Part shown: piece by piece, positions 3,262 to 29,569 of the stretch
Position numbering within the stretch: position 1 is the stretch's first letter
Layout: each line of letters opens with the position of its first letter
DNA from: Nostoc punctiforme PCC 73102
GTDB lineage: Bacteria; Cyanobacteriota; Cyanobacteriia; Cyanobacteriales; Nostocaceae
Length of the DNA: 32,000 nucleotides
Assembly: GCF_000020025.1 (NCBI RefSeq)
Contig: NC_010628.1
Location: 1,710,001-1,742,000, forward strand
Direction of reading: 5' to 3'
Notes under the pieces: generated by a model
The model's database searches: none
What the model was told of the DNA's origin: nothing
Seen by the model: only the letters and a program-made list of their open reading frames with translations
Made by a program: the position numbers and the translations under genes

Positions 3262-3273
3262 GAATTTAGAGGG

Positions 3274-3302
3274 AATAGGCAAATAGGCAATAGGTGATAG
3301 GT
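3274..3302. repeat. Degenerate heptamer run AATAGGC A AATAGGC AATAGGT GATAGGT, the same unit as at 581-615
   Basis: Read directly. It lies in the spacer between tube 2 and the tape-measure candidate. Confidence 0.85.
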
Positions 3303-3364
3303 AAGGAGGTTCTTATAGTTGTACTCAGCTTTGTAAAAATTGCATAGGAGTTTTGTGTTGCATC

Positions 3365-5562: not shown

Positions 5563-5565
5563 ATC

Positions 5566-7726: not shown

Positions 7727-7731
7727 TTTTT

Positions 7732-10700: not shown

Positions 10701-11277
10701 TTGGCTCGATCCGACTAAACCAAATGTGCTGTTTGAAGATAGTCTCCGGGAAAAGTTGCAGACAATTAATGCTACCGAAGCAGAGAACTTTGAAAAAATG
10801 ATGCGGGAAATTAACCGTCGTGCAGGGCAAGTTAAGCTAATGATTCTGCCCTACAGTAGCGATCGCCAACCAACCCCTAGTTTAGCTTTACTAGAGCAAG
10901 TCGAAACCTACATTCGTTCCCGTTGTGCGGGGACAGTAGATTTAGTGGTTACAGCCCCAAAATGGCGAGAAGTCACCGTAACTGCAACTATCACTCCTGT
11001 GTTGCTCGAAGATGCAGACATGGTGAGAAATATCGTTAGACAACACTTAGAAGCCTTTCTCCATCCCTTAACTGGGGGAACAGGGGAGGGCTGGCAATTT
11101 GGACGCTACCCGCAGAAATCCGATTTTTACGCCATTATTCAATCTATTACGGGAGTAGATCATGTTAATTCCCTAGAGGTGGAATTACCTACAACAAAAA
11201 GCAAGTCATTACTAAGTGCTGATTCTTTAATTTATTCTGGTCATCACACCGTCAATCTTAGTTCACTTTTAAATTGA
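7732..11277 (+). CDS. Giant baseplate J / gp6-like protein (1181 aa)
   Basis: The N-terminal DQRTYEEIVEQ...ALIRIFGRMVKLVSDRINQVPEKNFLAFLDLIG and C-terminal RDRAVTLEDIADLA...GWQFGRYPQKSDFYAIIQSITGVDHV are the conserved ends of baseplate-J-type proteins. It follows gp25 as in P2 (W then J). Confidence 0.8.
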   Translation: MASLPPKIDQRTYEEIVEQTEKLVEQSTDWKATPGNKTDAGGALIRIFGRMVKLVSDRINQVPEKNFLAFLDLIGGELKPPQPAKVPLTFYLAQGSPTDALVPAHTQVSAPPAEGADEEIVFETDRELVVTTTQLQAVFLREPNQDKYSDLSEMLYEKRTLSGTGQQDGAFLALEGDRSITHSLYITCPEILALPELKELQLIITTNNTVESVNQLQTLPLNWSYWDGSQWQSIQAPSQSQNNNQSTITFTFANLPIPAPYELQGKTARWLQANLNNISSLIGNFPQFTNIQGTINIKQSNLIPEVCLFNTTPLDLTKDFYPFGEQPEINDTFYIALNDTFIKPNATISIDIILTYKPVNINNLKIVWEIGNGGVWQEIADKNNQLKWIAQSSAIQFTEKDTIQAKLQFPSAENIPSPSTVNGETRYWIRARITQGHYGKAADERLYPVYDDLAVLRKEFKQGANEIEVDTLDLFKTGDAIRILPYTEGFSEENKITQIIKETNRLKLETGVLNTTLGVGTRIMRKLIITETIPPTYDPPLLKSLKLTYEFTLTEKAIYCAENDFIYSHPEKSSTQSFQPFTPTIDREPTLYLGFDNSFNNKTVTLYTQFEAPLPNELSADITEKTVLASTVNTGDKTLQIADLTGWQTGDRLQIQNPLNTKQYDNYIISNISNNLVTTNQPLQQNYPQNTPVIRPQQPQLVWEYSSPLGWQPLGVEDETQAFSQPGLIRFIAPADLSPRENFGKKLYWLRVRWVSGNFRVKPRLRRLLTNTIWAVQAISLQEEVLGSSNYEPNQVFIANNIPILMGQQLEIQEAQIPLNIESHRIKVIKDNLGEIDEVWVLWQEVADFYGSSASDRHYTLDRQTGEIRFGNGQAGMIPPRGRNNIRLSFYRTGGGKQGNVTAQTISQLKTTIPYIDRVINLEAAAGGAQQETLDRLKERVPKQLRHRDRAVTLEDIADLAYEASTDVARVKVVTPDLLTADFSPLNEKLWLDPTKPNVLFEDSLREKLQTINATEAENFEKMMREINRRAGQVKLMILPYSSDRQPTPSLALLEQVETYIRSRCAGTVDLVVTAPKWREVTVTATITPVLLEDADMVRNIVRQHLEAFLHPLTGGTGEGWQFGRYPQKSDFYAIIQSITGVDHVNSLEVELPTTKSKSLLSADSLIYSGHHTVNLSSLLN

Positions 11278-11302
11278 TCATTTTGATTACAGAGGAAAAA
11301 AG

Positions 11303-12250
11303 GTGACTTTACCCTTACCCAATCTTGACGATCGCAGCTATGCCAACTTACTAGAAGATGCAATTTCTCAGATTCCGCTTGAATACCCAGAATGGACAGA
11401 TCATAATCCTACAGATACGGGAATTATTCTGATTGAATTATTGGCATGGTTAACAGAAATGGTTCTCTACCGAGTTAATCAAATTCCTGATGAGAATTAT
11501 GCTAGCTTTTTGAGTTTACTTAAAGGAGAGGAATGGAATTTACCCATTAATATTTCTACCCAGGAACGACAAAATATTTTGCAATCAGAAATTCAAAAAA
11601 CTTTATTAGAAGTACGCAAAATTTATCGAGCCATTACTCCAGAAGATTTTGAAAAATTGGTAATTTTCGATTGGAATAAATCACAATATGCTGATAACTT
11701 AAAAATTGCTAGGGTTAAATGTTTAGCACAATGTAATTTAGAGTCAACATCTGATAACTTTGCTAAAGGACATATTAGTTTAGTAGTTGTTCCTGAAGAT
11801 AACGAAATAACTCAAGTAAATAAATATGAACCTTTATTTAAATTTCTTGACGATCGCAGACTTTTAACTACCCGACTGCATATCTTAGAACCTGAGTATG
11901 TATCCATAGCTATAGAATCAGAATTAGTGCTTCAGGATGGCGCACAAGCAGAAGCAGTTAAAACACAGGCAGAAAAGGAAGTCAAGATGTTTTTTGAACC
12001 CCTGCGATCGCAAAAATATTGGCAGGGAAAAGGATGGCCTTTTGGCCGGAGTGTTTATCTATCAGAATTATATAAATTATTAGATGACTTAGAAGGTGTA
12101 GATTATGTTGAAAACCTGCAAATTAAAGATAAGAATAATAACTCTAAATCTGAAATCAATTTAGCAGATAATCAGTTAGTTAAAATCAATCTCAAAGATA
12201 GCAAATTTACAATATTGGTAGAAGTTGGTAATGAACGTAAAAAAATCTGA
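11303..12250 (+). CDS. Mini baseplate-J paralogue (315 aa)
   Basis: GTG start with GAGGA upstream. The N-terminus (DDRSYANLLEDA...IILIELLAWLTEMVLYRVNQIPDENYASFLSLL) and C-terminus (RAITPEDFEKLV...GWPFGRSVYLSELYKLLDDLEGVDYV) align with the two ends of the 1181-aa protein. The central ~870 aa are absent. Confidence 0.7.
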   Translation: MTLPLPNLDDRSYANLLEDAISQIPLEYPEWTDHNPTDTGIILIELLAWLTEMVLYRVNQIPDENYASFLSLLKGEEWNLPINISTQERQNILQSEIQKTLLEVRKIYRAITPEDFEKLVIFDWNKSQYADNLKIARVKCLAQCNLESTSDNFAKGHISLVVVPEDNEITQVNKYEPLFKFLDDRRLLTTRLHILEPEYVSIAIESELVLQDGAQAEAVKTQAEKEVKMFFEPLRSQKYWQGKGWPFGRSVYLSELYKLLDDLEGVDYVENLQIKDKNNNSKSEINLADNQLVKINLKDSKFTILVEVGNERKKI

Positions 12251-13826
12251 ATCAGTTAGTACCTATCATCAATATTTACCAGCAATTCTCCAAAAAGATG
12301 TTTTTATTGCTCAGTTGTTGCTGTCATTTGAAAAAATTCTCAGTGGAGTAAGTGAAACTCCCAGTCAAGAGCAAATTATTACAGCCAAGACTCAAAATAT
12401 ACCAGGATTAGAAGAAATTATTGATAATATTCATGTTTATTTTAATCCTCAACATACTCCAAAGGAATTTTTACCTTGGTTAGCGGGTTGGGTAGCCTTG
12501 AGTTTACGAGATGATTGGGAAGTAGAAGTCAAAAAAGCATTTATTCAACAAATTGTTCACCTATACGGTTTGCGAGGAACAAAAGCAGGATTAATCGAAA
12601 TTTTGAGTATTTATTTAAAAAATTCAGGATTTGGAGAAAAAGTTGAAGTATTCGATCAATTTGATAATTTTCCGAATTATTTTCAAGTTCAACTAACTCT
12701 CAAAGACCGCGATCCTGATAAGTATTGGCGACAGGCTAAAATTGCTAAAGCAATTATCGATAGAGAAAAGCCTGCACAGACATTTTATTCATTAAAAATT
12801 CTTGTGCCAACGATGCAGCTAACTAAGCGATCGCACGTTGCTTATCCTTGCAAATTGTTTGCACCTCCAAAAAATCAAACCTTTGCCATAGAAGCCACGA
12901 TCACTCCCAACAACATTAATAGCATTCCAATTAATCAATTAGCGAACCAGTTAGCTATTCAGATCCAAGGAAACTCGGAATTAATTACCCCTTACTCACC
13001 AGAAACAATTATAACTAATCAATCATTTTCAACTAAACAAAATTTAAATTATCAGCATTTACAAGAAAACTTGGCAGGCTTCAATGTTATATTGTCAAAT
13101 CGAACCGATAAACAGTTTGTGGGCAATTTAACTATCAAGCTGTATTTTTCAATTAATGAAATTGAATATAACAATACACTCCTAGAACAACCTGTAAATT
13201 TATCACCAGTCCTAAAAATTTGTCGTGAAAATGAGAAAAGAGAAATTATTGCAGGAAATACAATTTTTAAACAAAATAGTCAGCCACAACAATCGGGAAT
13301 GAAGCTGACAGAGTTTATATGGACTAAACCCTATAACTTTCTACTGTTTGAACCACCAAAAATTCAGGAGTTACAACCTGATATAACTGCGATTATTGAA
13401 AAAGTGAAATTTGCAGCAATTGTAGAAATTACCCAACCAAATACAATCAACTCAGATTTACTAAATCAAATCACAGTTCGCCTTCAAGATGATGTTTCAG
13501 AATTTTATTTATTGACACCAGAAACTGTCAGACAAAATAATACAATTATAATTAAACGTACTCTTTATTACCAAGAGTTTATACATATAGATAAATTTAC
13601 AGTGATAATCAAAAACCTCAATAATCTTGATATTGCTGGTAAAGTAACTGTTCAAGCTTCCTTAAATATTAATCAGCGCTTATCTACTTATAAAATACTA
13701 GAGCAAACCTTTAACCTCACAGCCGTCTCTCCCTATAATATTTTACAAATTTGCCGTAAAAATGAGGAAGGTAAAATTATTTCTGGTAACACAATTCTAG
13801 GAACAACTAGTCAATCATTGAACTAA
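12231..13826 (+). CDS. P2 gpI-like tail/baseplate protein with a duplicated C-terminal module
   Basis: The N-terminal YLPAILQKD...FLPWLAGWVALSLRDDW....IVHLYGLRGTKAGLIEILSIY matches the gpI-type tail protein domain. The ATG at 12231 is preferred to the TTG at 12225. It overlaps the previous gene by 20 nt. Confidence 0.75.
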   Translation: MNVKKSESVSTYHQYLPAILQKDVFIAQLLLSFEKILSGVSETPSQEQIITAKTQNIPGLEEIIDNIHVYFNPQHTPKEFLPWLAGWVALSLRDDWEVEVKKAFIQQIVHLYGLRGTKAGLIEILSIYLKNSGFGEKVEVFDQFDNFPNYFQVQLTLKDRDPDKYWRQAKIAKAIIDREKPAQTFYSLKILVPTMQLTKRSHVAYPCKLFAPPKNQTFAIEATITPNNINSIPINQLANQLAIQIQGNSELITPYSPETIITNQSFSTKQNLNYQHLQENLAGFNVILSNRTDKQFVGNLTIKLYFSINEIEYNNTLLEQPVNLSPVLKICRENEKREIIAGNTIFKQNSQPQQSGMKLTEFIWTKPYNFLLFEPPKIQELQPDITAIIEKVKFAAIVEITQPNTINSDLLNQITVRLQDDVSEFYLLTPETVRQNNTIIIKRTLYYQEFIHIDKFTVIIKNLNNLDIAGKVTVQASLNINQRLSTYKILEQTFNLTAVSPYNILQICRKNEEGKIISGNTILGTTSQSLN

Positions 13827-13840
13827 ACTCAGGATAAAAA

Positions 13841-15712
13841 ATGGCTAAAACTACTGATTTCACCAATTTTGGTAATGAACGTCCTAACTATTTTGCAGGG
13901 CAATATCTGTTAGAAGATGATTTTGAAATTCAACATAAATATTTTAGCGATCGCCAACGCTACCATAATCAAAGTCTTCATATTTCAGGTATTGTTGAAG
14001 GGTTAGAAGTTGCAGTTATTCAGGATACAAAATCTGTTCAAATTAAATCTGGATCGGCTATCAATACTAGCGGCGATTTAATTATTTTAAAAGAAAATAT
14101 TACATTTTCCGACTTCAAAAATCTCATTGACGGCGTACTCTACATCCAATATGCCCAAGATAAACAAATTCAACAGCAAAAAGATGTACCAGATAGCTAT
14201 ACTCGTTGGATTGAAAAACCTATTTTGGGATTTGCAACTACAATTCCTGAAAATAGCGTCAACCTGGGAAAACTAACAATAGCTCAAAATACCATTACTC
14301 TTGATGCTAACGTTCGGGAATATTCTGGTTTATCCTTACCAAATTCTAATAGTAAAGCTTTAACTCTTCGCTCTGGAGGAAATGCCACTCCAAACTTAGC
14401 AGTTTTGACAGGTAGCTTAAAAATTGATGGGGATTTAACAGTAGCTGGGACAATCTCAGGAACAATAGATACAAAAAATATTACTTCTGGAATATTAAAT
14501 GTTGAAAGAATTCCTAATTTATCGACTGATAAAATCACTTCTGGAACATTAAATGTTGACAGAATCCCTAATTTATCGACTGATAAAATCACTTCTGGAA
14601 CATTAAATGTTGACAGAATCCCTAATTTATCAGCAAATAAAATCACTTCTGGAACAATTGTTGGCGATTTAACTGTTAATGGTAATATTACAGGTAAAAA
14701 CTTATCCCTTTCAGCAGACGGTAGTAAGCGTGGTGTATTATTTCTTGCTTCAATAGGAGACTATAACCACGTACTGTATAATAACCTGTCTAACATAGAT
14801 AATGAGGGAGTGTGGGATGGAGCCAAGTGGAATGTCTTTAACGGATTAAATATCCGAGTAGGAAGTGGTAGCTCTAAAAGTACAGCTTTTTATATCAATA
14901 ATAATGGTAATGTTGCCATTGGCATCAATAATCCAGGTGACTACAAATTAAATGTGCAAGGTAATCAGTTGCTTAAAGGTAGTCTAACTATTCAGGAAGG
15001 TAGAGTTAATCTTGATGGCAGTCAACAAATTGTTTTTTCAGATAATGGAACTACAAACCAGCTGAAATTACAACTTTGGAGTGGATATGGTCTCGGTATT
15101 AATGGTTCTACTTTATTCTATACAGCTAGCGGCAATCATTCTTGGCGAGATAGTCAAAATATTGAAAGAATGTTGTTAAGCACTGCTGTAGATGGTGGGT
15201 TAACAGTCAAAGGAACAGGAAGTTCTTCTTTTGCTGGAAATTTAACTGTAACTGGTTCTTTATCGGTGGGTATATCTGTTGGAAGTACAACGAATATTGA
15301 CCTATCAGGCCATATCCAACTCAAAGAATATGGACAACAGAATATTGCTTTTCTTCAAGCACGAGACGACTCATCCAATCGAAATATTGGTTTGAGAATT
15401 AGAACGCAAACACAAGGTAGTACACAAAGAACCCTTGTAGACGCAGTAACCATTACTCCCAGTGGAGAAATACAGGGAAAGATTTGGTATTCTGACGAAT
15501 ATGTATGGAAGAATGGTCAAACTGATGTCAAGATGGGACACAGTAGTAAATGCGTTGCATTTCTAACATATATGCAAGGAAAATTTGCTGGTAGTGGCGA
15601 ACAAGTTTTTACTTATATAGGAAGTGACGGATATTGGTATCTTGGTGGAAAGCAGGGAGGTGGAGGTGCTGATATAGTCGCCAAAGCAAGATGTATTGGT
15701 TCTCCTAGTTAG
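13841..15712 (+). CDS. Tail-fibre-like protein (623 aa)
   Basis: Its position after gpI-like equals P2 gpH. It has a tandem ITSGTLNVDRIPNLSTDK fibre-type repeat and is Gly/Ser/Asn/Thr-rich with a beta-rich periodicity. Confidence 0.65.
   Translation: MAKTTDFTNFGNERPNYFAGQYLLEDDFEIQHKYFSDRQRYHNQSLHISGIVEGLEVAVIQDTKSVQIKSGSAINTSGDLIILKENITFSDFKNLIDGVLYIQYAQDKQIQQQKDVPDSYTRWIEKPILGFATTIPENSVNLGKLTIAQNTITLDANVREYSGLSLPNSNSKALTLRSGGNATPNLAVLTGSLKIDGDLTVAGTISGTIDTKNITSGILNVERIPNLSTDKITSGTLNVDRIPNLSTDKITSGTLNVDRIPNLSANKITSGTIVGDLTVNGNITGKNLSLSADGSKRGVLFLASIGDYNHVLYNNLSNIDNEGVWDGAKWNVFNGLNIRVGSGSSKSTAFYINNNGNVAIGINNPGDYKLNVQGNQLLKGSLTIQEGRVNLDGSQQIVFSDNGTTNQLKLQLWSGYGLGINGSTLFYTASGNHSWRDSQNIERMLLSTAVDGGLTVKGTGSSSFAGNLTVTGSLSVGISVGSTTNIDLSGHIQLKEYGQQNIAFLQARDDSSNRNIGLRIRTQTQGSTQRTLVDAVTITPSGEIQGKIWYSDEYVWKNGQTDVKMGHSSKCVAFLTYMQGKFAGSGEQVFTYIGSDGYWYLGGKQGGGGADIVAKARCIGSPS
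14480..14662 (+). repeat. In-frame 54-bp (18-aa) tandem repeat, about 3.4 copies, inside the fibre gene
   Basis: Units start at 14480, 14534, 14588 and 14642 (partial). Copies 2 and 3 are nearly identical at nucleotide level. Confidence 0.95.
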
Positions 15713-15759
15713 TGCGATCGCCAAGCTTATAAAATATATTTGCAACTCAATATGACTCT

Positions 15760-16188
15760 ATGGCTGACTTCATTCTCATCACTGGCGATAAAGCCATATT
15801 TAACCCTACTTTTGGACAAGCCATTGTCACCGTCCGTCCAGGCGATCTAGTTGGCACAGGCAAGGATAAAATTAACCAGAAACTAGTCTGTGTAGATGGC
15901 GACGAAAAAAAAGTCATCGTTCCTGGTTGTCCTTATATAACTTCCCAATATAGTATCCCTGGAGTTGGGATACTATCCATTGAATCCCTTGCTGGCAACC
16001 AAAAAGCCAAAAAGACAAAATCTGGTGATAAACCAGTACTGCTCAAAGGTGCTTCATTTAAAGCCAAATTTCAAGTCCTGGTTCCCGCACAAAAACCTTC
16101 TGTACCTAGTCCCATACCCGATGCAACCCCCCAATATTCCGGTACTGGCACATTTATTTCTGTGAATAGCAAAGTCAAAGGAACTTAA
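15760..16188 (+). CDS. Hypothetical 142-aa protein at the distal end of the CIS operon (function unknown; spike-tip, cargo or fibre-chaperone role are guesses)
   Basis: It is an ORF on the same strand, 47 nt after the fibre gene. I recognised no motif with confidence. The C-terminal third is Pro/Ser-rich. Confidence 0.5.
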   Translation: MADFILITGDKAIFNPTFGQAIVTVRPGDLVGTGKDKINQKLVCVDGDEKKVIVPGCPYITSQYSIPGVGILSIESLAGNQKAKKTKSGDKPVLLKGASFKAKFQVLVPAQKPSVPSPIPDATPQYSGTGTFISVNSKVKGT

Positions 16189-16195
16189 TTAAATA

Positions 16196-16429
16196 ATGAA
16201 AGAACAATTAGAAAAACGCCTTACTGAGCTCAAAGCCGAATTGGTATCAGGACAAAAAGTCATGGCAGATTTAGAGGCGAAACAAGCAAATCTGCGCGAT
16301 ACCTTACTGCGGATTAGTGGTGCAATTCAAATTTTGGAAGAACTCACATCTTCTACTAAGCAAGATGATTATCAAAATAATAATTACGTACAAGAGGAAT
16401 CAAACGTTCAATATCAATTAAAAGATTGA
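16196..16429 (+). CDS. Hypothetical 77-aa coiled-coil protein
   Basis: It starts 7 nt after the previous stop. It shows a heptad-like pattern (LEKRLTELKAELVSGQKVMADLEAKQANLRDTLLRISGAIQILEEL) and an acidic/Q/N tail. Confidence 0.5.
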   Translation: MKEQLEKRLTELKAELVSGQKVMADLEAKQANLRDTLLRISGAIQILEELTSSTKQDDYQNNNYVQEESNVQYQLKD

Positions 16430-16621
16430 CATCCCTCTTGATTAAAACATAGGAAATTATGTGCTTTTACCCATAATTTAGCCAAAATTGTGAACCAAGA
16501 TCAGCGATCGCACGGCGGTAAATAGAGTTTTATGACATCTTGAGATGCAAAGATGTAAATAACTTTATCCTTTTCAACAAGGATATGTTAAGACAATACC
16601 AGATAATTGCACTACCAGGTT

Positions 16622-17971
16622 ATGCCCATAGATTTACGGGAATTTTATCAGGCTAGCGATCCCAGCAGAACTCTATTTGTCAACAATAGCTCTGATGGCA
16701 AGTATTACATAGATTTTTCCTCAGTCCGAGGTGGTGATATTCTTGGCAAGCTGAAGCAGAAAATTACCTTTTTTAAGCCCAATGAACCCACCTGCACTTT
16801 ATTTACTGGGCATATTGGTTGTGGTAAATCGACAGAACTATTACGATTACAGGCAGAACTGGAAAAATTAGGCTTCCATGTAGTTTATTTTGAGTCTAGT
16901 GACGACCTGGAAATGACCGATGTCGATATTGCTGATGTGCTGCTGGCGATCGCTCGTCGTGTGAGTCAAAGTTTAGATAAAATTATACTGGAGTCACCAA
17001 ACAAGTTTAATGAGTTGCTGCAAGGTGCTTGGAAGGTCTTAAACTCCGAGGTAACGGGAGTAAAAGTGAAGGTTCCCAATGTCGGCGATTTTGGTGTCAC
17101 CTCGGAAAAAGAAAAGTTGTCTCTGTCTGTGGGCATTGGTGAAATCACCGCCAAGATGAAAAATGACCCAACCCTGCGAGAAAAACTCAATCAGTATTTA
17201 GCACCGCAAAAAACTAAACTGCTGGAAGCGATTAATCAAGAATTATTGGAACCTGCGATCGCTAAACTCAAACAGCAGGGTAAAAATGGTCTGGTGGTAA
17301 TTGTCGATAATCTTGACCGCATAGATAATCGTGCCAAACCTTGGGGTCGTCCGCAGCAGGAATATCTATTTGTCGATCAAGGTGAGTTTTTGACTAAGCT
17401 GAATTGTCATCTCATCTACACCATGCCTTTATCGTTGAAGTTTTCCAATGATTACGGAATGCTGACTCAGCGTTTCCCAGAAGATCCCAAGGTTTTACCA
17501 ATGGTACCTGTACATTGGTCTGATGGCAGTCTTCATGCACAGGGAATGGCGCTCATGCAGCAGATGGTACTAGCAAGAGCTTTTCCTGACATGACACCAG
17601 AGGAGCGTTTAAATAAAGTTACCGAAATTTTTGATAGTGCTGCTAGCCTAGAACGGTTATGTCAAATGAGCGGTGGTCATGTGCGGGACGTGCTGAGGCT
17701 GCTAAATACCTGGATTATGGAAGAGATGAGTCTTCCCCTAACCCGTGACACCTTAGAGCAAGTTATTCGTTCTCGGCAGAATGAGATAATGTTGCCGATT
17801 TCTGAGGATGAGTGGCAATTGTTACGTCATGTCAAAGAAAAGAAAAAGGTGAGTGATGACCACGGATATCAAAAACTGATCCGCAGTCGATTTGTGTTTG
17901 AATATCGCGATTGCGGCGAGTCTTGGTTTGACGTTAATCCGGTTTTGGCTGAGGCGAAGGAGTTGCAATGA
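16622..17971 (+). CDS. P-loop NTPase (Orc1/Cdc6- or minimal-STAND-like ATPase), about 449 aa
   Basis: Walker A is GHIGCGKSTEL and Walker B is LVVIVDNLDRID, followed by a helical C-terminal region. The ATG at 16622 is preferred to the track's TTG at 16607. A ~190-nt gap separates it from the CIS operon. Confidence 0.75.
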   Translation: MPIDLREFYQASDPSRTLFVNNSSDGKYYIDFSSVRGGDILGKLKQKITFFKPNEPTCTLFTGHIGCGKSTELLRLQAELEKLGFHVVYFESSDDLEMTDVDIADVLLAIARRVSQSLDKIILESPNKFNELLQGAWKVLNSEVTGVKVKVPNVGDFGVTSEKEKLSLSVGIGEITAKMKNDPTLREKLNQYLAPQKTKLLEAINQELLEPAIAKLKQQGKNGLVVIVDNLDRIDNRAKPWGRPQQEYLFVDQGEFLTKLNCHLIYTMPLSLKFSNDYGMLTQRFPEDPKVLPMVPVHWSDGSLHAQGMALMQQMVLARAFPDMTPEERLNKVTEIFDSAASLERLCQMSGGHVRDVLRLLNTWIMEEMSLPLTRDTLEQVIRSRQNEIMLPISEDEWQLLRHVKEKKKVSDDHGYQKLIRSRFVFEYRDCGESWFDVNPVLAEAKELQ

Positions 17972-18055
17972 GGAGGCAGGAGGCAGGGCGAATGGAATTC
18001 GCGGCTATACAAACATAGACGCTTTGCGGCTTCCTAAAGAAAAATTAAATGTTTG

Positions 18056-18075
18056 AAACCCACAGAGGTGGGTTT
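18056..18075 (+). terminator. Stem-loop AAACCCAC-AGAG-GTGGGTTT between the ATPase and STAND genes (weak terminator candidate or repeat fragment)
   Basis: It is a perfect 8-bp stem, but the T-tract is mostly inside the stem and GC content is low. Confidence 0.25.
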
Positions 18076-18113
18076 TGCCTGTGTAGACGCGGTTTCTAAC
18101 TCCCTTTTAACTT

Positions 18114-21100
18114 ATGACAGACTCGCAACCACTAGAAGATCGCCATGTAAACAGTGATGTCTACGACGGGCTACACCTACGCTCTCTGAAACAATTAGCT
18201 TGGGCGATTGAATCCTCTGTGGGACAGTTTAAGCTGATTTTGGCACGGTGTAATTATGCTAGCTTGCGCGATCGCTTAATCTCCAGATTGCAGGAAATTT
18301 GTCAAGTCGAAATTCGTGTCTTGGCGGTGCAGCAATCTAACAGAACTCTTTATACTGCGATTCAGGAAGAATTCGGCGAAGAGATACCAGCCTGTGTGAT
18401 GGTTGTGGGTTTGGAATCAGTGCAGAATTTGTCTGTGATGTTAACTTCTGCGAATCAGGTGCGGGAAGAGTTTCGCAAGAATTTTGCTTTTCCTTTAGTG
18501 TTGTGGATTGACGATGAAATCTACAAGCAACTAATACAGCTTGCACCAGATTTGGAAAGTTGGGCAACTATGAGAAATTTTGAGATATCAACACAAGAAT
18601 TAGTAGATTTTGTCACCGAAACGGCTAATCAATGGTTTAGTAATAACTTAAAACTTAGCTATAATGAATATTTAAAACTTAAAACTGAATTAGAAACCGC
18701 GCAAAGATATCTGCTGAGTGATAAGTACGTTGCTAATTTAGAGGTTGAGGCTAATTTAGTATCTTTATTAGGTTTTGTTAGCCAGATTAACGATATAAAT
18801 ATCGCGCTGGAAAATTATCAAAAAGCCCAGTCAATGTGGCAAAAGCTTAATAATATAAAAAGACAAAATAAAATATCTTATAATACTGCTTTTTGTTATA
18901 ATATTAAATGTTTTAGAAATCTAGATATTAATCATTACGATTGGCAAGCTAATCGTAAGTATGCCCAAGAATATATCAAGTTTCTTGTACAATCTCAACG
19001 TCCAGATTTAATCGCTGATTCAATCTTTAAATTTGGTTATGTACTGCGGGACTTAAAAGAGTGGCAATGTTTAAAACAACTAGCTGAAATAGCTTTAGAA
19101 ATACATAAAGCTAACAATCAGCCAGTAGATTTAGCAAAAGATTATGGTTTTTTAGCTGAGGCGGCGCTGGCTCAAGAATATTGGCTTGAGGCAAATCAAT
19201 TAATTGAGAAAGCTTTAGAAATTTTCTTGCCAGTAATTCATAGCTTGAAATCCAAAAATATACCAGGATATTTATCAGAGATAAACGACTTATTCGACTT
19301 CGCCGATTTATTGTTCATACCAAATGATTTTAGTCTCTATATGTTTATAAAAGCGCGTTCTTTATATCATTTAGGACAACCTCACAAAGCAATTACTATA
19401 TTAGAAGCTTCAATACCTATCAGTGTTCCAAATTGTAATTTAAAACTTTATTTGGATATTATCAGATTTTTGCAGCAGCTTTATTTTGAGCAGAAAGAAT
19501 ATCTCAAAGCATACAAAATCAAACAGCAACAGCGTTCCATTGAACAGCAATTTGGCTTGCGGGCTTTTATTGGTGCGGGTAGGTTAGAAGCTACAAAACA
19601 GGCATTTGTAGAGACATTACGCTCAAACTCTCCCCAAGGAAACATTGCCCCAGAAATTGCTGCATCTGGTCGCTTATTGGATATAGAACGTTTAATTGAA
19701 CGCATGGGTCGCCCTGATTATAAGTTGATAGTAATTCATGGGCAATCGGGTGTAGGCAAAAGTTCCCTGGTGAATGCGGGACTAGTGCCGGCTTTAAAGG
19801 ATAAAGCGATCGGTGTTCAAGATTATTTGCCGGTGGTAATGCGGGTTTATACTAACTGGGCGGAAGAATTGGGGAGGCTTTTGGGGAGAGATTTGGTTCG
19901 ACTTCGCTCACCAACCGAGGGATGGGGAGATAAGGGGGATGAGGGAGAGTTAGAAGGTCAACTTCCACCCTCAGAAGGTCAACATTCAGCCTCAGAAGGT
20001 CAACATTCAGCCTCAGAAGGTCAACATTCAGCCTCAGAAGGTCAAGTTTCAGCCTCAGAAGGTCAAGTTTCAGCCTCAGAAGGTCAAGTTTCAGCCTCAG
20101 AAGGTCAACTTCCACCCTCAGAAGGTCAACTTTCATCCTCAGAAGGTCAACTTTCATCCTCAGAAGGTCAACTTTCACCCTCAGAAGGTCAACTTCCACC
20201 CTCAGAAGGTCAACTTTCATCCTCAGAAGGTCAAGTTTCATCCTCAGAAGGTCAACTTCCACCCTCAGAAGGTCAACTTCCACCCTCAGAAGGTCAACTT
20301 TCATCCTTAGAACTCGGAACTACGCAATATTTGATATCCAGACTCAAAGAAAACGAACAGCGCAACCTCCGCACGGTGTTAATTTTCGATCAATTTGAGG
20401 AATTTTTCTTTGTTTACACCGAACCTGCACAAAGGAAGCAATTCTTTGAGTTTTTGGGAGAGTGTCTGAATGTTCTATCGGTGAAAGTTATCTTATCGCT
20501 GCGGGTAGATTACATCCATTACTTGCTGGAGTGCAATGATTTGTCCAGTCTCAAGATTATTGGCAATGACATTCTCAGTAATAATGTGCTTTACAAGTTG
20601 GGGAATTTCTCACCGACAGATACCAAGTCAATTATTCAGCGTTTAACTGAAAATACTAGTTTTTATTTAGAACCTGCCTTAGTTGAACAACTGGTGCTAG
20701 ATTTAGCCGGAGAATTGGGCGAAGTTCGTCCCATTGAGTTGCAAGTTGTGGGGGCGCAACTGCAAACGGAGAACATTACAACTCTGGCAGAATATCGGCA
20801 GCGTGGCACTAAGGACGAATTGGTTAAGCGTTATTTGGATGAAGTTGTTAATGATTGCGGCGTAGAAAATCAGCAAGCAGCAGACATATTACTGTATTTG
20901 CTGACTGATGAAAAAGGAACTCGCCCTTTAAAAACTCGCGCTGAGTTGGAACGCGATTTGCAGGGTTACTTCTCGGAGATCCCCCCAACCCCCCTTAAAA
21001 AGGGGGGCTTTATTCTTTCAACCCCCTTTTTAAGGGGGTCGCCGCAGGCGGGGGGATCGGAAGCTAGGGCGAAACAAGCTTCTGAAATCAATAAATTAGA

Positions 21101-23615
21101 TTTGATTTTAGAGATTTTTGTCCAATCCGGCTTAGTGGTTTTGCTACCAGAAAACCCCGCCGACCGTTATCAACTGGTACATGACTACATCGCTGCCTTT
21201 ATCCGCCAGCAACAGGAACCGAAGTTAAAGCAGGTAATGGCGGAACTGGAAAAGGAACGAAAAGAAAGAAAACTGAGTGAGGCGAAACTGAATAGCTTTC
21301 TCAAACGCGCCCTTTTTAGTACCGTGGCCGCAGGTTTAGGATTTGCTGGGTTAGCAGCAGCAACATTCCAGTGGGCAGTAGAGGCAAATGTTAATCAAAT
21401 TAGCGCCATCAATAATTCTTCGGAAGCCTTTGCTCTCTCTGAAAAATATCCAGATGCTTTAATAGCAGCCTTAAAAGCAGGTAGCAAACTCAAGCATACA
21501 CTTTGGGCACAGCACAGAAGCGATATCTTAATGCAAACTGTGGTAACTTTACAGCAAGCGGTTTACTTAAAGCCAAAGGAGAAGAAAGAAAATCGTGCCA
21601 TAGAAGTGAATACTTTAGAAGGTCATAGCGATTGGGTCAGTAGCGTCGCTTATAGCCCCAATGGATACCAGTTAGCTTCTGCTAGTGCTGATAAGACCAT
21701 CAAAATCTGGGATGTTAGCAGTGGTCAACTCCTCAAAACCCTGACTGGTCATAGCGATAGGATCAGAAGCATCGCCTATAGCCCTAATGGACAACAGTTA
21801 GTTTCTGCTAGTGCTGATAAGACCATCAAAATCTGGGATGTCAGTAGTGGTAAACTCCTCAAAACCCTGACTGGTCATACTAGTGCGGTCAGTAGCGTCG
21901 CCTACAACCCTAATGGACAACAGTTAGCTTCTGCTAGTGATGACAACACCATCAAAATCTGGGATATCAGTAGTGGTAAACTCCTCAAAACCCTGCCTGG
22001 TCATAGCAGTGTAGTCAATAGCGTCGCCTACAACCCTAATGGACAACAGTTAGCTTCTGCTAGTAATGATAAGACCATCAAAATCTGGGATATCAATAGT
22101 GGTAAACTCCTCAAATCCCTGACTGGTCATAGCAGTGAGGTCAATAGCGTCGCCTACAGCCCCAATGGACAACAGTTAGCTTCCGCTAGTTTTGACAACA
22201 CCATCAAAATCTGGGATATCAGTAGTGGTAAACTCCTTAAAACCCTTACTGGTCATAGCAATGTAGTCTTTAGCGTCGCTTACAGCCCCAATGGACAACA
22301 CTTAGCTTCTGCTAGTGCTGATAAGACAATCAAAATCTGGGATGTCAGCAGTGGTAAACCCCTCAAATCTCTGGCTGGTCATAGCAATGTAGTCTTTAGC
22401 GTCGCTTACAGCCCCAATGGACAACAGTTAGCTTCCGCTAGTGATGACAAAACCATCAAAGTCTGGGATATCAGCAATGGTAAACCCCTCGAATCCATGA
22501 CTGATCATAGCGATAGGGTCAATAGCGTCGTCTACAGCCCTAATGGACAACACTTAGCTTCCCCTAGTTATGACAAGACCATCAAAATCTGGAATGTCAG
22601 TAGTGGTAAACTCCTCAAAACCCTAACTGGTCATAGCAGTGAGGTCAATAGCGTCGCCTACAGTCCCAATGGACAACAATTAGCTTCCGCTAGTTGGGAC
22701 AAAACCATCAAAGTCTGGGATGTCAATAGTGGTAAACCCCTCAAGACCCTAATTGGTCATAGCAGTGTGGTCAATAGCGTCGCCTACAGTCCCAATGGAC
22801 AACAGTTAGCTTCCGCTAGTTTTGACAACACCATCAAAGTCTGGGATGTCAGTAGTGGTAAACTCCTCAAAACCCTAACTGGTCATAGCAATGCGGTCAG
22901 TAGCGTTGCCTACAGTCCCAATGGACAACAGTTAGCTTCCGCTAGTCTTGACAACACCATTAAAATCTGGGATGTCAGTAGTGCTAAACTCCTCAAAACT
23001 TTGACTGGTCATAGCGATGCGGTCAGTAGCGTCGCCTACAGTCCCAATGGACAACAGTTAGCTTCCGCTAGTGATGACAACACCATCAAAATCTGGGATG
23101 TCAGCAGTGGTAAACTCCTCAAATCCCTCTCTGGTCATAGCAATGCGGTCTATAGCATCGCCTACAGCCCCAATGGACAACAGTTAGCTTCTGCTAGTGC
23201 TGACAATACCATCAAAATCTGGGATGTTAGCAGTGGTAAACTCCTCAAATCCCTCTCTGGTCATAGCGATTGGGTCATGCGCGTCACCTACAACCCTAAT
23301 GGACAACAGTTAGCTTCTGCTAGTGTTGACAAAACAATAATTTTATGGGATTTGGATTTCGATAATTTATTACACAGTGGTTGCAATTTGCTAAATAATT
23401 ACTTGATTGGTCATCCAGAAGTGTTAGAAGAGTTGCAATCATGCCAAACTCCATCTCGTTTAGCGCAAGGTGCGACAACATTAGTCATCCAAGGTGAAAA
23501 GTTAGCGCGAAATGATGATATTAATGGCGCTGTTGAAAAGTTTGACAAAGCACAGCAGTGGGATAATAAATTAAAGTTTGATTCTCAGGCGAGAGCGAAA
23601 GAGTTGGCGAAGTAA
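18114..23615 (+). CDS. NLR-like STAND NTPase with 14 WD40 repeats (1833 aa)
   Basis: Walker A is [22 protein letters not shown] (nt ~19738-19800) and Walker B is [13 protein letters not shown] (~20370-20405). Further elements are the coiled coil [18 protein letters not shown], the hydrophobic helix [24 protein letters not shown], and 14 GHS...WD repeats. The N-terminal ~540 aa is a P-loop-less module ([12 protein letters not shown] / [10 protein letters not shown]) plus TPR-like helices. Confidence 0.9.
19950..20306 (+). repeat. 17 x 21-bp in-frame minisatellite encoding SEGQ(L/H/V)(P/S)(P/A/S) heptapeptides
   Basis: The period is exactly 21 bp from 19950 to 20306. The variant order is LPP, HSA x3, VSA x3, LPP, LSS x2, LSP, LPP, LSS, VSS, LPP x2, LSS. 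Confidence 0.97.
20978..21058. mobile_element. 81-bp nested-palindrome insert (MITE/small-dispersed-repeat-like) lying in frame within the STAND gene
   Basis: The termini GATCCCCCC (20978-20986) and GGGGGGATC (21050-21058) are inverted repeats. There are two internal perfect hairpins: CCCCCC-TTAAAAA-GGGGGG (20989-21007) and CCCCC-TTTTTAA-GGGGG (21022-21038). It translates as [27 protein letters not shown]. Confidence 0.6.
21621..23357 (+). repeat. 14 tandem 126-bp WD40 repeat units with very high nucleotide identity
   Basis: Units start every 126 nt from 21621 to 23259 (GGTCATAGC...). The consensus is [42 protein letters not shown]. Confidence 0.95.
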
Positions 23616-23787: not shown

Positions 23788-24001
23788 CAATACAGTTCAG
23801 ATAAGACCAAAACACTTGTAGAGACGGCAATTTATCGCATCTCAAAACCCACGATTTTGTACAAGTGGCGCTTAACCCAAGCGTATTGCCTTATATCTCA
23901 ATACGGTTTAATTAAAGGTTATTGGTGTAGATAATTGGTTTTTCAAGACGCGAGAAATCGCGTCTCTACATGAGGGTTTTGGGCTTATCTGAACTGTATT
24001 G
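23788..24001. mobile_element. Foldback MITE-like element (~214 bp) with long terminal inverted repeats
   Basis: CAATACAGTTCAGATAAGACCAAAAC (23788-23813) matches the reverse complement of 23976-24001 at 25 of 26 positions. The similarity continues inward through TGTAGAGACG... arms. There is an internal hairpin, GACGCGA-GAAA-TCGCGTC. Confidence 0.6.
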
Positions 24002-27428: not shown

Positions 27429-28739
27429 TTAAGAAATTTCGTCGCTATCAACCCACTCATCATAAGATGAATCATAACCAACATAGTGAACAAAGTATTG
27501 CTGATTTTGGATTTGCTGAATCGTTGCGGAATACCAAGCTTCTTGGTCTTCATCCCAACATTTTACTTTTTGACCAACTGCATATCCATTGTCATCCGCA
27601 GAGCGAAGATCGCGAGTCCGAATGTCATCTTCACCTACCCACTCGTCATAAGATGAACCGTAACCAAGGTAATGAATAAAGAATTGTTCATCTTGGATTT
27701 TCTCAATTGTTCCCTGATACCAATCTTCCTCCTCACCATCCCAGACTTCTACTGTTTTGCTGACTTCATACTGATTCTTATCTGACTTGACAGCAGAAGC
27801 TGACGAAACATCTTGAATAGGCTTTTGTTGCTCTTGTTTAATTTCCTCTTTTACTAAAGCATAAGCTTCCAAAATCAAGCCGCGAGCGACGGTTTGAGTT
27901 CCCGTATGCTCGTAGTAATTGGTAGTTTGATCTAGGAATACCGCGACAAAATCTAAATTATCATCAGCAATCTGAATAAAACTACCCAAATTACTAGAAA
28001 TTGATTGTGGGGTTATACCTGTCTTAGATACTAAGTTATTCATCCAACCTTGTACGGAGTTAAAACTCTGACCGATAAAACCAACTTTATCAGAGGGGTT
28101 ACTACCTGGTAGAAAGTTATTGATGGCTAAGAAAACCGGATTTTGAGTTATTGCACCAGCATCAGTGCCACTAATTACTCCGTGAATTTTGCTGAGAAAG
28201 TCGGGACCTAATGGCAGAATCCCGTCTATACAAACTAAAGCTACCATCCGCATTAAGGAGGCATTTTGATAGTTGTTAGCAAGAGAATTAGCAAACTCTT
28301 GGGGGTTAGGTTGAGGAATGCCATTTAGTTTGCAAAAAGCGATGATTTCGACAGCGATTTTTAGCGCCAAGTCAATAGATTGAGTTACATCAGCTTTGGG
28401 AGTAATGTTGCCTAAAAAAGACAGAAAGCCGATTTTCTCACTAACTTTATTCGCTAAAGCTGCTGCTGCCATAGCTGTGTCTGCCTTATCAATTGTTTGA
28501 TAAAGCTTGATTGCAAACTGGTAGCCTTTTTGAGGATCTTCGTATAATACGACAGCGCGATCGCGGATTCTCTGAATTACCTTAACATCGGTTTCTCCAG
28601 TAATGCTGCGAATACTATTTTCAAATCCCGTCAAATTGCTCCACTCACCTGGTGCTACGTAATCAAGAGCCTTTAAAACTTTGACAGTGATATTGTCAGT
28701 TGGTAATTCGTCAACCAACTGAATAATTGATTTATCCAT
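27429..28739 (-). CDS. Protein of unknown function with two C-terminal Tudor/Agenet-like domains (436 aa)
   Basis: The two copies are VWDGEEEDWYQGTIEKIQDEQFFIHYLGYGSSYDEWVGEDDI and CWDEDQEAWYSATIQQIQNQQYFVHYVGYDSSYDEWVDSDEI. The ATG at 28739 (GAGGAT 8 nt upstream) is preferred to the track's TTG at 28784. Confidence 0.8.
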   Translation of the reverse strand: MDKSIIQLVDELPTDNITVKVLKALDYVAPGEWSNLTGFENSIRSITGETDVKVIQRIRDRAVVLYEDPQKGYQFAIKLYQTIDKADTAMAAAALANKVSEKIGFLSFLGNITPKADVTQSIDLALKIAVEIIAFCKLNGIPQPNPQEFANSLANNYQNASLMRMVALVCIDGILPLGPDFLSKIHGVISGTDAGAITQNPVFLAINNFLPGSNPSDKVGFIGQSFNSVQGWMNNLVSKTGITPQSISSNLGSFIQIADDNLDFVAVFLDQTTNYYEHTGTQTVARGLILEAYALVKEEIKQEQQKPIQDVSSASAVKSDKNQYEVSKTVEVWDGEEEDWYQGTIEKIQDEQFFIHYLGYGSSYDEWVGEDDIRTRDLRSADDNGYAVGQKVKCWDEDQEAWYSATIQQIQNQQYFVHYVGYDSSYDEWVDSDEIS

Positions 28740-28832
28740 CAGCCGATCCTCAAAACTCAAAGTTATGCTTACAACACAGTTCAACTAAACCCACAACAAT
28801 TAATACCAGTTGCTTACCTTACGGGAAGCCTT

Positions 28833-29145: not shown

Positions 29146-29569
29146 TGCTTCTCATCTGCTGACTTTTCAATCATCTGAGCGCAATTCCATGCCAAAAATT
29201 TGTTTTTTTAACCTTTTGCTAGCTGTTCCTTAAACTTACCGGGATAAGTTGAAGTTGATAAGTACGAATTAATACTAATAAAGTATGTAGCTATTTTTTG
29301 CTAGTTACTTCGGTCTTTCATGCCATCTTGTCTCATGTTCACCCAAATACTGAAGTAAGTTTTTGCATCTATCCTTTTGTAGTTATGGGAGCGATCGCCC
29401 CACTAATGAGTCTAATTGCTCTGGTGGAGATGGCGATCGCTTTTGGACTGTTAGGAAGTGCGACTAACTTTGGATCATCACCAAGGCGATCGCACTTAAT
29501 ACATCGCTTCGGATAATTTGGTTGATTTTTTGAGAATTTGAAACAAACTAAAGAGGTTAAATAATTCCT

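Follow-up and report, generated by a model that had tools for sequence, protein, structure and literature searches.

A predicted transmembrane nSTAND1-WD40 receptor gene and a linked ORC/Cdc6-like ATPase gene downstream of a CIS operon in Nostoc punctiforme

Introduction

The window analysed here (the whole stretch of 32,000 nucleotides from Nostoc punctiforme PCC 73102) begins with a contractile injection system (CIS) operon at 1-16188, whose genes encode sheath, tube, gpD, a VgrG-like protein, gp25, baseplate J, Tail_P2_I and the spike tip, followed by two genes, geneA (16622-17971, + strand) and geneB (18114-23615, + strand). Do these two genes serve the CIS, or do they have a function of their own? 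The first-pass annotation had suggested a possible regulatory or cell-suicide coupling of sensor and CIS; on this hypothesis, stress or invasion would be sensed by the STAND-WD40 protein, which with the ATPase would regulate CIS assembly/firing or CIS-linked suicide, geneA replacing a missing CIS AAA+ ATPase. We consider this coupling very improbable, and favour, with some reserve, the reading that the two genes make up an ancient module that works on its own: geneB would be a transmembrane NLR-like (nSTAND1) receptor, geneA its obligate ORC/Cdc6-like AAA+ partner, and the adjacency to the CIS the result of a lineage-specific rearrangement.

Results

geneA models as an ORC/Cdc6-like ATPase

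The description of geneA as a single-domain P-loop NTPase of about 449 aa held, the ORF, GHIGCGKSTEL and VVIVDNLDRID all being found; the 449 aa are counted from an ATG, and the other possible start is a TTG at 16607. The protein models as a bare module of NBD, helical lid and C-terminal winged helix, ORC/Cdc6-like (ATPase_2/AAA_22-type): Foldseek searches with the AF2 model (pLDDT 87) matched Orc1/Cdc6, SSO1545 (2fna), PAB2304 (2qen), Apaf-1/CED-4 and RdrA, while every Pfam match was sub-threshold and a PF00004 match was absent. Three motifs stood out in the 53 sequences of alignment A1: Walker A (GHIGCGKST, aa 63-71, 16808-16834, +), with G63, H64, G66, G68, K69, S70 and T71 invariant; Walker B (LVVIVDNLDR, aa 224-233, 17291-17320, +), with D229, N230, L231 and D232 invariant; and the lid-domain motif SGGHVR (aa 350-355, 17669-17686, +), with S350, G351, G352, H353 and R355 invariant, placed by the AF2 model in helix 354-368 and possibly comparable to the Cdc6/Orc1 sensor-2 motif. 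Identity to geneA ranged from 49 to 96% (Nostocales, Oscillatoriales, Desulfobacterota).

geneB joins an nSTAND1 NTPase to a predicted transmembrane helix and a variable WD40 array

The 1833-aa ORF of geneB was recovered with all the motifs quoted for it, and its product is predicted to be a membrane-anchored nSTAND1 receptor. Its NTPase (NOD) module (19656-21233, +), annotated at first as a bona fide STAND-type NTPase, belongs by HMM to nSTAND1 (Pfam PF20703, E = 1.2e-31, 111 bits against a cut-off of 27.1 bits, scored after removal of the WD40 region), with Walker A at 19740-19766 (+) and Walker B at 20376-20402 (+); at the sequence level the Walker motifs of both NTPases, geneA and geneB, are intact. 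Between Walker A and Walker B of geneB is inserted a 21-nt tandem repeat encoding the heptapeptide SEGQxxx in 17 copies (19952-20312, +; TRF: period 21, 17.2 copies, 93% matches), and the distance between the motifs is 212 aa in the window versus 77-86 aa in distant orthologues. Strains differ in the copy number and unit sequence of this array, which is in frame wherever the ORF is intact.

The N-terminal module of geneB (aa 20-175, 18171-18638, +) is a real, confidently modelled alpha/beta domain, with five strands in the order b-a-b-a-b-a-b-a-b (block pLDDT mostly 88-96 in the AF2 model), but the descent from a P-loop NTPase suggested for it could not be demonstrated. Residues conserved among family members include F39, C46, R117, F120, F126 and W150; a search with the domain gave 884 representative clusters at E <= 1e-3, and comparison with Pfam and the PDB gave no consistent match. 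The TPR-like helices that follow (aa 183-480, 18660-19553, +) were borne out by both the AF2 model and Foldseek (LGN/Pins/KLC TPR domains, E about 1e-7). This solenoid exists as discrete allelic cassettes: the class common to the window and L054 (~96% identity) is 35-60% identical to the majority class, whereas the flanks are 96-100% identical.

A hydrophobic helix had been noticed between the NOD and the sensor, and it was located at aa 1067-1085 (21312-21368, +), preceded by a coiled coil and basic residues. The helix is Gly/Ala-rich and borderline in hydropathy (19-residue Kyte-Doolittle mean 1.65); a hydrophobic segment with K/R on its N-terminal side occupies this position in 85 of 100 geneB family representatives, its position being kept and its sequence not. 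From hydropathy and the positive-inside rule, a single-pass N-in, C-out topology is predicted. The order N-domain, TPR, nSTAND1, hydrophobic helix and repeats was the same in all 100 long representatives.

The C-terminal part (21621-23384, +) holds 14 WD40 repeats (14 Pfam matches) of exactly 42 aa each (TRF: period 126, 13.6 copies), in agreement with the double seven-bladed sensor first described, the two seven-bladed propellers being a prediction. Variation is concentrated at repeat positions 4, 5, 7, 23 and 42, which makes four or five variable sites on the surface of each repeat; there, nonsynonymous and synonymous codon differences number 358:3, versus 604:462 elsewhere. The dN/dS of the signalling core is 0.18-0.29, indicating purifying selection. 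These sequence data support a hypervariable-surface signature as expected of a recognition receptor and, with the nSTAND1 assignment, agree with the view of geneB as an NLR-like STAND protein whose sensor is a WD40 array.

Such variation could also belong to a cytoplasmic Avs/bNACHT-like antiphage abortive-infection system, in which geneB would sense a phage protein via TPR and/or WD40 and oligomerise, the N-terminal domain or geneA would kill, and the helix would be only a tether or not be inserted. The hypervariable WD40 surface positions and the swapping of TPR cassettes do resemble arms-race signatures, the nSTAND1 clade has been placed among conflict systems (PMC8195603), and Apaf-1-like WD40 sensors have been described in STANDs of bacteria, above all of cyanobacteria (PMC13581612); yet profile searches of geneB found no recognised effector domain, and the basic-flanked hydrophobic segment argues for real membrane insertion. 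Likewise, geneA matches PADLOC PDC-S20 and mad8 and an NCBIfam antiphage model, but weakly (18-23 bits), and the PADLOC match of geneB is to WD40 repeats alone. Considering also the unusually high conservation of geneA across phyla and the gene neighbourhoods described below, we regard an antiphage system as unlikely.

The two genes are linked across cyanobacterial orders and Desulfobacterota

geneB lies directly 3' of geneA in 81 of 83 loci, the exceptions being one contig end and one deletion (81/82 when informative Nostocales loci alone are counted). The pair was also found in Moorena, a 1.4-Mb metagenome contig, Desulfobacteraceae/Desulfobulbaceae, Scytonema, Leptolyngbya, Trichodesmium and an Oscillatoriales MAG; geneA of the distant loci (Moorena, Desulfobacterota, Scytonema and others) is 49-59% identical to the window copy. 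The two genes are strictly linked across cyanobacterial orders and Desulfobacterota, and the pair is operon-like in distant lineages, where the genes overlap by 4 nt (L089) or are 1 nt apart (L091). From this linkage we infer a physical interaction of the two proteins. In the window, the spacer between them (17972-18113, +) is occupied by a small dispersed repeat that contains the hairpin AAACCCAC-AGAG-GTGGGTTT; 20 sequences, the window among them, carry copies of 50 nt or longer, some of which lie elsewhere or are inverted.

The commonest upstream neighbour of the pair is a divergent leuC/leuD (46 loci), and in Scytonema, Trichodesmium and the Oscillatoriales MAG the pair is divergent from ftsQ-ftsZ; in most genomes the gene upstream of the pair runs in the opposite direction. 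The neighbours are housekeeping genes (leuCD, ftsQ-ftsZ, proB-like, mgtE) and not defence islands, which speaks against the antiphage system. The same neighbourhoods suit a signalling module with a housekeeping or developmental function in filamentous bacteria, for instance in division-linked surveillance (envelope, septum or cell-cell), with no part in conflict: the chromosomal positions of the pair are conserved, its signalling core is strongly purified by selection, and the named homologues are nearly all from filamentous cyanobacteria and Desulfobacterales. A sensor of that kind would, however, be unusual in having hypervariable positions, polymorphic TPR cassettes and a varying repeat number, and T. 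variabilis 0441, Kovacikia and Nostoc UHCC 0702 are viable with geneB lost or degraded; this alternative seems to us quite unlikely.

The CIS is a neighbour in a single small clade

CIS genes lie upstream of the pair in 3 of 80 informative loci (L010, L019, L026), three other Nostoc genomes that keep the arrangement and share one 7-tip clade with the window in the tree. The pair was thus found in relatives at positions unrelated to CIS loci, the outcome that the first-pass annotation had itself named as speaking against a functional link. In the distant loci, searches detected no CIS structural genes. A CIS_TMP gene does lie about 6 kb upstream of the pair in one of them (L087), but three integrase genes separate the two.

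Within the window, the last recognisable CIS structural gene is the spike-tip gene (15760-16188, +; Pfam CIS_spike_tip, E = 1.6e-53), which is context outside the geneA-geneB module. It is followed by geneA on the same strand after 434 nt, an arrangement compatible with coupling. The gap (16189-16621) holds a 77-aa coiled-coil ORF (16196-16429, +) as the tail of the CIS context, and the stretch 16150-16640 as a whole, this ORF included, aligns solely to the three CIS-adjacent loci. Synteny with non-CIS genomes breaks at about 16534, where a conserved 5' leader, probably containing the promoter, starts (16534-16621, +): in blastn, the last ~88-107 nt before geneA were 90-97% identical in about 70 non-CIS loci. 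This leader of ~90 nt is kept in CIS-adjacent and non-CIS loci alike, with the conserved blocks TGTAA-N7-TAT, CAAGGATA, AGATAA and ATTACYAG (alignment A4). Since the pair is divergent from leuC/leuD in 46 loci, it probably has its own promoter; read-through transcription from the CIS operon into geneA may occur in the window strain, because no + strand terminator was predicted between them.

That the CIS lacks an AAA+ ATPase was correct within the window, but a 742-aa WHD+AAA (PF00004) gene, divergently transcribed, lies just upstream of it, as seen in a contig that matches the first 11 kb of the window without a difference. The argument from a missing ATPase is therefore void, and geneA, lacking the PF00004 AAA domain, differs from the eCIS Afp15-type AAA+ ATPase. 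The operon is a CIS of the same general kind as the Anabaena thylakoid-anchored CIS (tCIS), here in a Nostoc-clade genome, and the link of that system to stress-induced ghost cells lends some appeal to a suicide function; however, the description of the tCIS cluster mentions no STAND, WD40 or ATPase component, and neither geneA nor geneB is among its listed components (Weiss et al. 2022, PMC8894136). Judged by synteny, the coupling of the pair to the CIS is largely refuted.

Discussion

We propose that the N-domain, TPR and nSTAND1 modules of geneB are cytoplasmic, that the single helix crosses the membrane, and that the double WD40 propeller faces the periplasm or the thylakoid lumen. A ligand on the variable propeller surface would release the autoinhibition of the nSTAND1 NOD, which would then swap nucleotide and oligomerise at the membrane, and the clustered platform of N-terminal alpha/beta domain and TPR would recruit or activate geneA. 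As a sensor-less NBD-lid-winged-helix ATPase, geneA might act as helper or executor, and its output could be nucleic-acid binding via the winged helix or nucleated co-oligomerisation. An extracytoplasmic WD40 sensor, with the membrane between sensor and NOD, departs from the Apaf-1-type autoinhibition model, and for this reason the signalling step is speculative.

A formal parallel to the predicted topology is offered by PknD-type receptor kinases, in which one transmembrane helix connects a cytoplasmic signalling domain with a beta-propeller outside the cytoplasm. geneB would share with them the N-in, C-out single pass and the C-terminal beta-propeller as external sensor, but its cytoplasmic signalling module is a STAND NTPase instead of a kinase, and its topology is a prediction. 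Sensor/helper NLR pairs such as NAIP-NLRC4 and the plant sensor-helper NLRs are analogues of the geneA-geneB pair. In bacteria, Kaur et al. 2021 described a two-gene system, the nSTAND2 pair, both genes of which code for a STAND NTPase (PMC8195603); as there, geneA and geneB are adjacent and each encodes an NTPase of the CDC6/Orc lineage, one member being large and sensor-bearing and the other compact and a possible helper or executor, but geneA is not an nSTAND paralogue, being ATPase_2/AAA_22-like with a fold closest to Orc1/Cdc6 and the archaeal SSO1545.

With its intact nSTAND1 module and its C-terminal propellers as presumed sensor, geneB resembles the nSTAND1-clade or Apaf-1-like STAND-WD40 proteins of bacteria, multicellular cyanobacteria among them (PMC8195603; Nature 2026 survey, PMC13581612). 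It differs from them in having an unannotated alpha/beta domain and a TPR solenoid at the N-terminus instead of an EAD, Death-like, caspase, TIR or other known effector domain, in the conserved predicted transmembrane helix between NOD and WD40 array, in the obligately linked ORC/Cdc6-like ATPase gene and in the location of the pair outside defence-island contexts. Near-identical 42-aa repeats, with variation limited to a few predicted top-surface hotspots, are also found in fungal HET-E/HNWD-type and cyanobacterial 'highly repetitive' WD40 proteins (Hu et al. 2017, PMC5587647); the HET-E/HNWD-type proteins are cytosolic NACHT proteins, whereas the geneB array lies behind a predicted transmembrane helix, is joined to nSTAND1 and is paired with geneA.

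The most likely role of the pair is the recognition of non-self or of environmental/cell-surface cues in filamentous bacteria, and not control of the CIS. For an immune system the pair would be atypical in being highly conserved, apparently inherited vertically and set among housekeeping genes, features that could indicate a cellular role outside conflict.

Linkage of the gene pair and its relation to the contractile injection system

A scan with geneA, the gene of the small P-loop ATPase (16622-17971, + strand; 449 aa counted from the ATG), in one genome per species gave 80 loci, to which three Trichormus loci were added (83 loci), and linkage was tested by tblastn of the window proteins against this set. 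geneB, which encodes the giant nSTAND1-WD40 protein (18114-23615, + strand; 1833 aa), lies directly 3' of geneA in 81 of the 83 loci, the exceptions being a contig end and a strain in which geneB is deleted. The pair is intact in Moorena, a 1.4-Mb metagenome contig, Desulfobacteraceae/Desulfobulbaceae, Scytonema, Leptolyngbya, Trichodesmium and an Oscillatoriales MAG, geneA of the distant lineages sharing 49-59% identity with the window copy; the two genes overlap by 4 nt in one locus (L089) and are 1 nt apart in another (L091). The pair is strictly linked and operon-like.

The operon of the contractile injection system (CIS) occupies window positions 1-16188 on the + strand (ORF calling, Pfam) and includes genes for two sheath proteins, two gp19-type tube proteins, CIS_tube-LysM, gpD, a VgrG-like OB-fold spike, gp25, an 1181-aa baseplate J protein, a J-like protein, Tail_P2_I and a spike-tip protein. 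Directly 3' of the spike-tip gene there is a 77-aa coiled-coil ORF (16196-16429, + strand; below the 100-aa listing cut-off), which is kept in CIS-adjacent loci only and probably closes the operon; the gap that the first-pass annotation placed upstream of geneA stands only in part, part of it holding this ORF. A contig of the same genome, which has the same sequence as the first 11 kb of the window, carries more CIS genes 5' of window position 1, divergent from the operon (L093:2714-8321): a 742-aa WHD+AAA (PF00004) ATPase and a 550-aa eCIS_core (DUF4157-type) protein, followed by Pvc16_N and CarboxypepD_reg cap-region genes and a 481-aa sheath gene. The earlier argument from a missing AAA+ ATPase of this CIS therefore does not hold.

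The adjacency of the pair to the CIS had been read as a sensor-to-CIS regulatory or cell-suicide coupling. Such a coupling is disfavoured by the neighbourhoods of the pair across relatives: CIS genes lie 5' of it in only three of the 80 informative loci (L010, L019 and L026), which together with the window fall in a 7-tip clade of the geneA tree, a distribution consistent with a single rearrangement as the origin of the adjacency. No distant locus with the pair has CIS structural genes matching the CIS proteins of the window. The commonest upstream neighbour is a divergent leuC/leuD (46 loci), others being mgtE, a LuxR-type response regulator gene and an aminotransferase gene. The leader of geneA tells against coupling too: conserved blocks are found in CIS-adjacent and non-CIS loci alike, non-CIS genomes share no more than the ~88-107 nt immediately 5' of the ATG (16534-16621), and the sequence 5' of 16534 is common to L010, L019 and L026 only. 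Furthermore, the CIS locus has its WHD+AAA ATPase of its own, and the published Anabaena tCIS cluster was described without a STAND, WD40 or ATPase component. The results thus give no support to the framing of the pair as a CIS-coupled sensor. Apart from these loci, a CIS-related gene was seen near the pair just once: a CIS_TMP gene in a distant metagenomic relative, ~6 kb 5' of the pair and beyond three tyrosine-recombinase/integrase genes (L087:1-6146), which we put down to coincidence or to both residing in a variable region.

In Scytonema hofmannii, Trichodesmium and the Oscillatoriales MAG, ftsQ (POTRA_1) and ftsZ divergently adjoin a paralogous ATPase/nSTAND1-WD40 pair (L090:6077-11338, L092:6082-11232, L097:4272-8323), an arrangement that may reflect where the pair lay ancestrally or may hint at a connection with cell division. 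This synteny, found in three loci and two orders, suggests a housekeeping or division-linked signalling role, with which the hypervariable sensor of geneB and the loss of geneB in some strains fit poorly.

Decay of the pair was observed among L002:10001-12203, L085:7655-12823 and L096:8305-11575: T. variabilis 0441 keeps geneA without geneB; Kovacikia is without geneA, and its fragmented geneB carries a GVRSQES repeat in the N-domain; and a second copy in Nostoc UHCC 0702 retains an uncalled geneB remnant beside a DDE transposase. The cluster look-up gave no PCC 7120 orthologue or locus tag of the pair, and for this reason the transcriptome and mutant literature is not tied to it.

geneA encodes a putative ORC/Cdc6-like NTPase

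All the motifs quoted in the first-pass annotation were found in geneA and geneB, and both NTPases keep intact catalytic motifs. The Pfam matches of geneA are all below threshold (AAA_22, 26.8 bits against a cut-off of 27; ATPase_2, PF01637, 24.8 against 33.2 bits; NPHP3_N; nSTAND5; KAP), and many of its orthologues have precomputed PF01637 or PF13401 matches. The AF2 model, built with 53 homologues as input (pLDDT 87, pTM 0.87), predicts a P-loop domain, then a helical lid, with a winged helix at the C-terminus, the arrangement of the ORC/Cdc6-like or ATPase_2 type. The top Foldseek matches of the model in the PDB were Orc1/Cdc6 (2qby), ORC subunits of human, fly and yeast, SSO1545 (2fna, TMt 0.50) and PAB2304 (2qen, TMt 0.53), the last two being archaeal archetypes of ATPase_2; Apaf-1/CED-4, RdrA and NLRP3 were matched as well. 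Sequence searches of geneA and of geneB residues 1-1140 against the PDB gave nothing meaningful. The geneA family shows no variation in Walker A, Walker B or an SGGHVR motif of the lid. Because of these Pfam matches, the model, its structural matches and the invariant motifs, geneA is predicted to be a bare NOD-like, ORC/Cdc6-like NTPase without sensor or effector.

Two other assignments of geneA were rejected. One was a CIS accessory ATPase of the Afp15/Cis15 type: Pfam found no PF00004 (classical AAA) match in geneA, a real WHD+AAA gene lies upstream in the CIS locus, and the co-location with CIS structural genes expected of such an ATPase occurs in 3/80 informative loci and in no distant locus. 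The other was a KAP NTPase: PF07693 scored 18.8 bits against a 20-bit cut-off, and no hydrophobic helix of the KAP-style transmembrane kind is present in the insert between Walker A and Walker B, which includes a polar and charged 23-residue loop of low confidence (aa 144-166). We take the likeness to KAP to be limited to the DxLDR-type Walker B.

The nSTAND1 module and the N-terminal region of geneB

The earlier reading of geneB as a STAND-type NTPase was confirmed by a match to nSTAND1 (PF20703) well above the curated threshold (E = 1.2e-31, 111.2 bits against a cut-off of 27.1 bits, in aa 501-1130 with the WD40 repeats removed). Walker A (GQSGVGKSS) and Walker B (VLIFDQFEE) are both intact and conserved in orthologues. 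Of the tripartite STAND layout, the NOD (the nSTAND1 NTPase module) and the WD40 sensor are present, the N-terminus consists of an alpha/beta domain plus TPR, and the canonical order is interrupted by a predicted transmembrane helix.

The AF2 model of geneB aa 1-500 (pLDDT 87) predicts a five-stranded alpha/beta domain at aa 20-175 (the N-domain) and an LGN/KLC-like TPR solenoid at aa 183-480, TPR matches dominating its Foldseek results. No Pfam family matched aa 1-250 at E <= 0.05, and a Pfam scan of 12 diverse members together with a PDB profile search returned no consistent family for the N-domain, only scattered single matches (KaiA_N, AAA_22, SIR3, NA-iREase1). The N-domain family comprises 884 representative clusters (242 at E <= 1e-30); of the 150 representatives listed, all but one have the domain at or close to the N-terminus, and the order N-domain, TPR, nSTAND1 is found in 100 of 100 representatives of at least 1000 aa, 82 of which also have WD40 repeats. 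The first-pass annotation had considered this region a P-loop remnant, with which the predicted strand-helix order is compatible: the b-a-b order fits a P-loop fold as well as several other Rossmann-like folds. In hhalign, the N-domain scored a probability below 1% against both the geneA family and nSTAND1, in a comparison whose control between two real NTPases reached only 13%.

A putative membrane helix and a hypervariable sensor in geneB

In geneB, a coiled coil followed by a hydrophobic helix (aa 1067-1085) separates the NOD from the WD40 array. Of 100 representatives, 85 have a hydrophobic segment at the position of this helix, its hydrophobicity being conserved and its sequence not, with basic residues on the N-terminal side. 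From these features we infer that geneB may be a single-pass, N-in protein whose WD40 propellers would lie outside the cytoplasm.

The sensor consists of 14 WD40 repeats of exactly 42 aa each, with 88% nucleotide matches between repeats and variation concentrated at repeat positions 4, 5, 7, 23 and 42; the ratio of nonsynonymous to synonymous codon differences is 358:3 at the hypervariable sites and 604:462 elsewhere. Near-identical repeats with few variable surface positions place geneB among the highly repetitive (HIC) WD40 proteins, and repeats of this type with variable hotspots have been documented for cyanobacteria already (PMC5587647).

In addition to the WD40 hotspots, geneB varies in a heptapeptide array and in TPR cassettes with sharp boundaries. 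The array is a 21-nt tandem repeat of 17 copies encoding SEGQxxx heptapeptides (19952-20312), located between the Walker A and Walker B of nSTAND1, which are spaced by 212 aa in the window geneB versus 77-86 aa in distant orthologues without the insert. Copy number and unit sequence differ among Nostoc orthologues, in frame where the ORF is intact. Assemblies frequently break at this array.

The TPR module (~18620-19460; aa ~170-450) occurs as discrete allelic cassettes, which explain the low identity of the window copy: it is ~96% identical to that of L054 and only 35-60% identical to the majority class (48 loci), with 96-100% identity in the N-domain and NOD on either side. In CIS-adjacent relatives, too, the other cassette is found. 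Uniformly fast evolution of the TPR region was rejected (median dN/dS 0.29), and purifying selection acts on the conserved signalling core (dN/dS 0.18-0.29).

The pair could also be read as a cytosolic Avs-like antiphage system, but the conserved membrane segment argues against this, and neither an effector nor a match to a defence model nor a defence-island setting was found. No effector domain (nuclease, protease, TIR etc.) was recognised by Pfam in geneB aa 1-250 or in the 12 diverse N-domains. For geneB, PADLOC gave HEAT-ARM_XIII, spanning the WD40 repeats, and a single marginal CARF_HEPN within that array; the matches of geneA were weak, at 22.8 bits with PDC-S20, 18 bits with mad8 and 18 bits with NCBIfam DS41_1 (cut-off 370 bits). 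The identities of the neighbours (leuCD, mgtE, two-component, ftsQ-ftsZ, proB-like) did not indicate a defence island.

Intergenic elements and window flanks

The geneA leader contains TGTAA-N7-TAT (GTA-N8-TAT; 16555-16568), which is similar to a half-consensus of NtcA and is kept in many Nostocales. An NtcA-type site was rejected because the element lies 15 or 33 nt from candidate -10 hexamers, versus the canonical ~22 nt, and the motif is left unassigned. The geneA-geneB spacer (17972-18113) corresponds to a small dispersed repeat, containing the hairpin AAACCCAC-AGAG-GTGGGTTT, copies of which are seen at other positions and in other orientations in other Nostoc loci; in orthologous loci the spacer measures between about 80 and 1220 nt. 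Just 3' of the geneB stop there is an imperfect self-complementary (palindromic) stretch of ~214 nt (23788-24001), for which a MITE-like element and a bidirectional terminator are both conceivable. Scans for Rfam families and tRNAs over the window gave nothing.

Further downstream, a 451-aa protein (27429-28784, - strand) has two C-terminal Tudor-knot/Agenet/chromo-like modules, domains usually linked with eukaryotic chromatin readers. The window's 3' end appeared free of listed ORFs because an ORF of at least 813 aa (29561-32000, + strand) runs off it.

Proposed mechanism and significance

An external or lumenal ligand would bind the WD40 propeller surface and the signal would cross the membrane from the geneB sensor; the nSTAND1 module would exchange nucleotide and oligomerise, and the N-domain plus TPR platform could then engage geneA as helper or executor. 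Sensor/helper NLR pairs are a functional analogy for geneA and geneB. The nSTAND2 pair (PMC8195603), with a STAND NTPase in each gene, is a precedent that is, like geneA-geneB, a two-gene NTPase system.

We tentatively propose, with low confidence, that the pair represents an undescribed class of transmembrane NLR-like receptor, having a hypervariable double WD40 propeller outside, one helix, a cytoplasmic nSTAND1 switch, a new N-domain and an obligate ORC/Cdc6-like AAA+ helper; it would be vertically inherited in filamentous cyanobacteria, ancestrally by ftsQ-ftsZ, shared with Desulfobacterota, and engaged in surface or periplasmic surveillance of non-self, kin or envelope in multicellular bacteria. 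Cyanobacterial STAND-WD40 proteins, nSTAND1 and highly repetitive WD40 repeats are already known; the literature searched gave no description of the pair, of an obligate ORC/Cdc6-like partner or of the N-domain family, nor of a transmembrane nSTAND1-WD40 protein or a conserved membrane helix between NOD and sensor.

CIS adjacency in one genome is no evidence of coupling; annotation of the pair as CIS accessory genes is to be avoided, and geneA should not be taken for the CIS ATPase. The pair is an uncharacterised system of two NTPases, widely conserved in filamentous bacteria and carrying an unannotated N-domain family of ~900 representative clusters. If the predicted topology holds, its unusual arrangement of an outside sensor with an inside STAND module would extend the repertoire of bacterial NLR-like receptors, and the class proposed here, if true, would be a prokaryotic counterpart of a cell-surface pattern-recognition receptor on an NLR chassis. 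The pair is a tractable target, in Nostoc or Anabaena, for learning what such receptors sense in multicellular prokaryotes.
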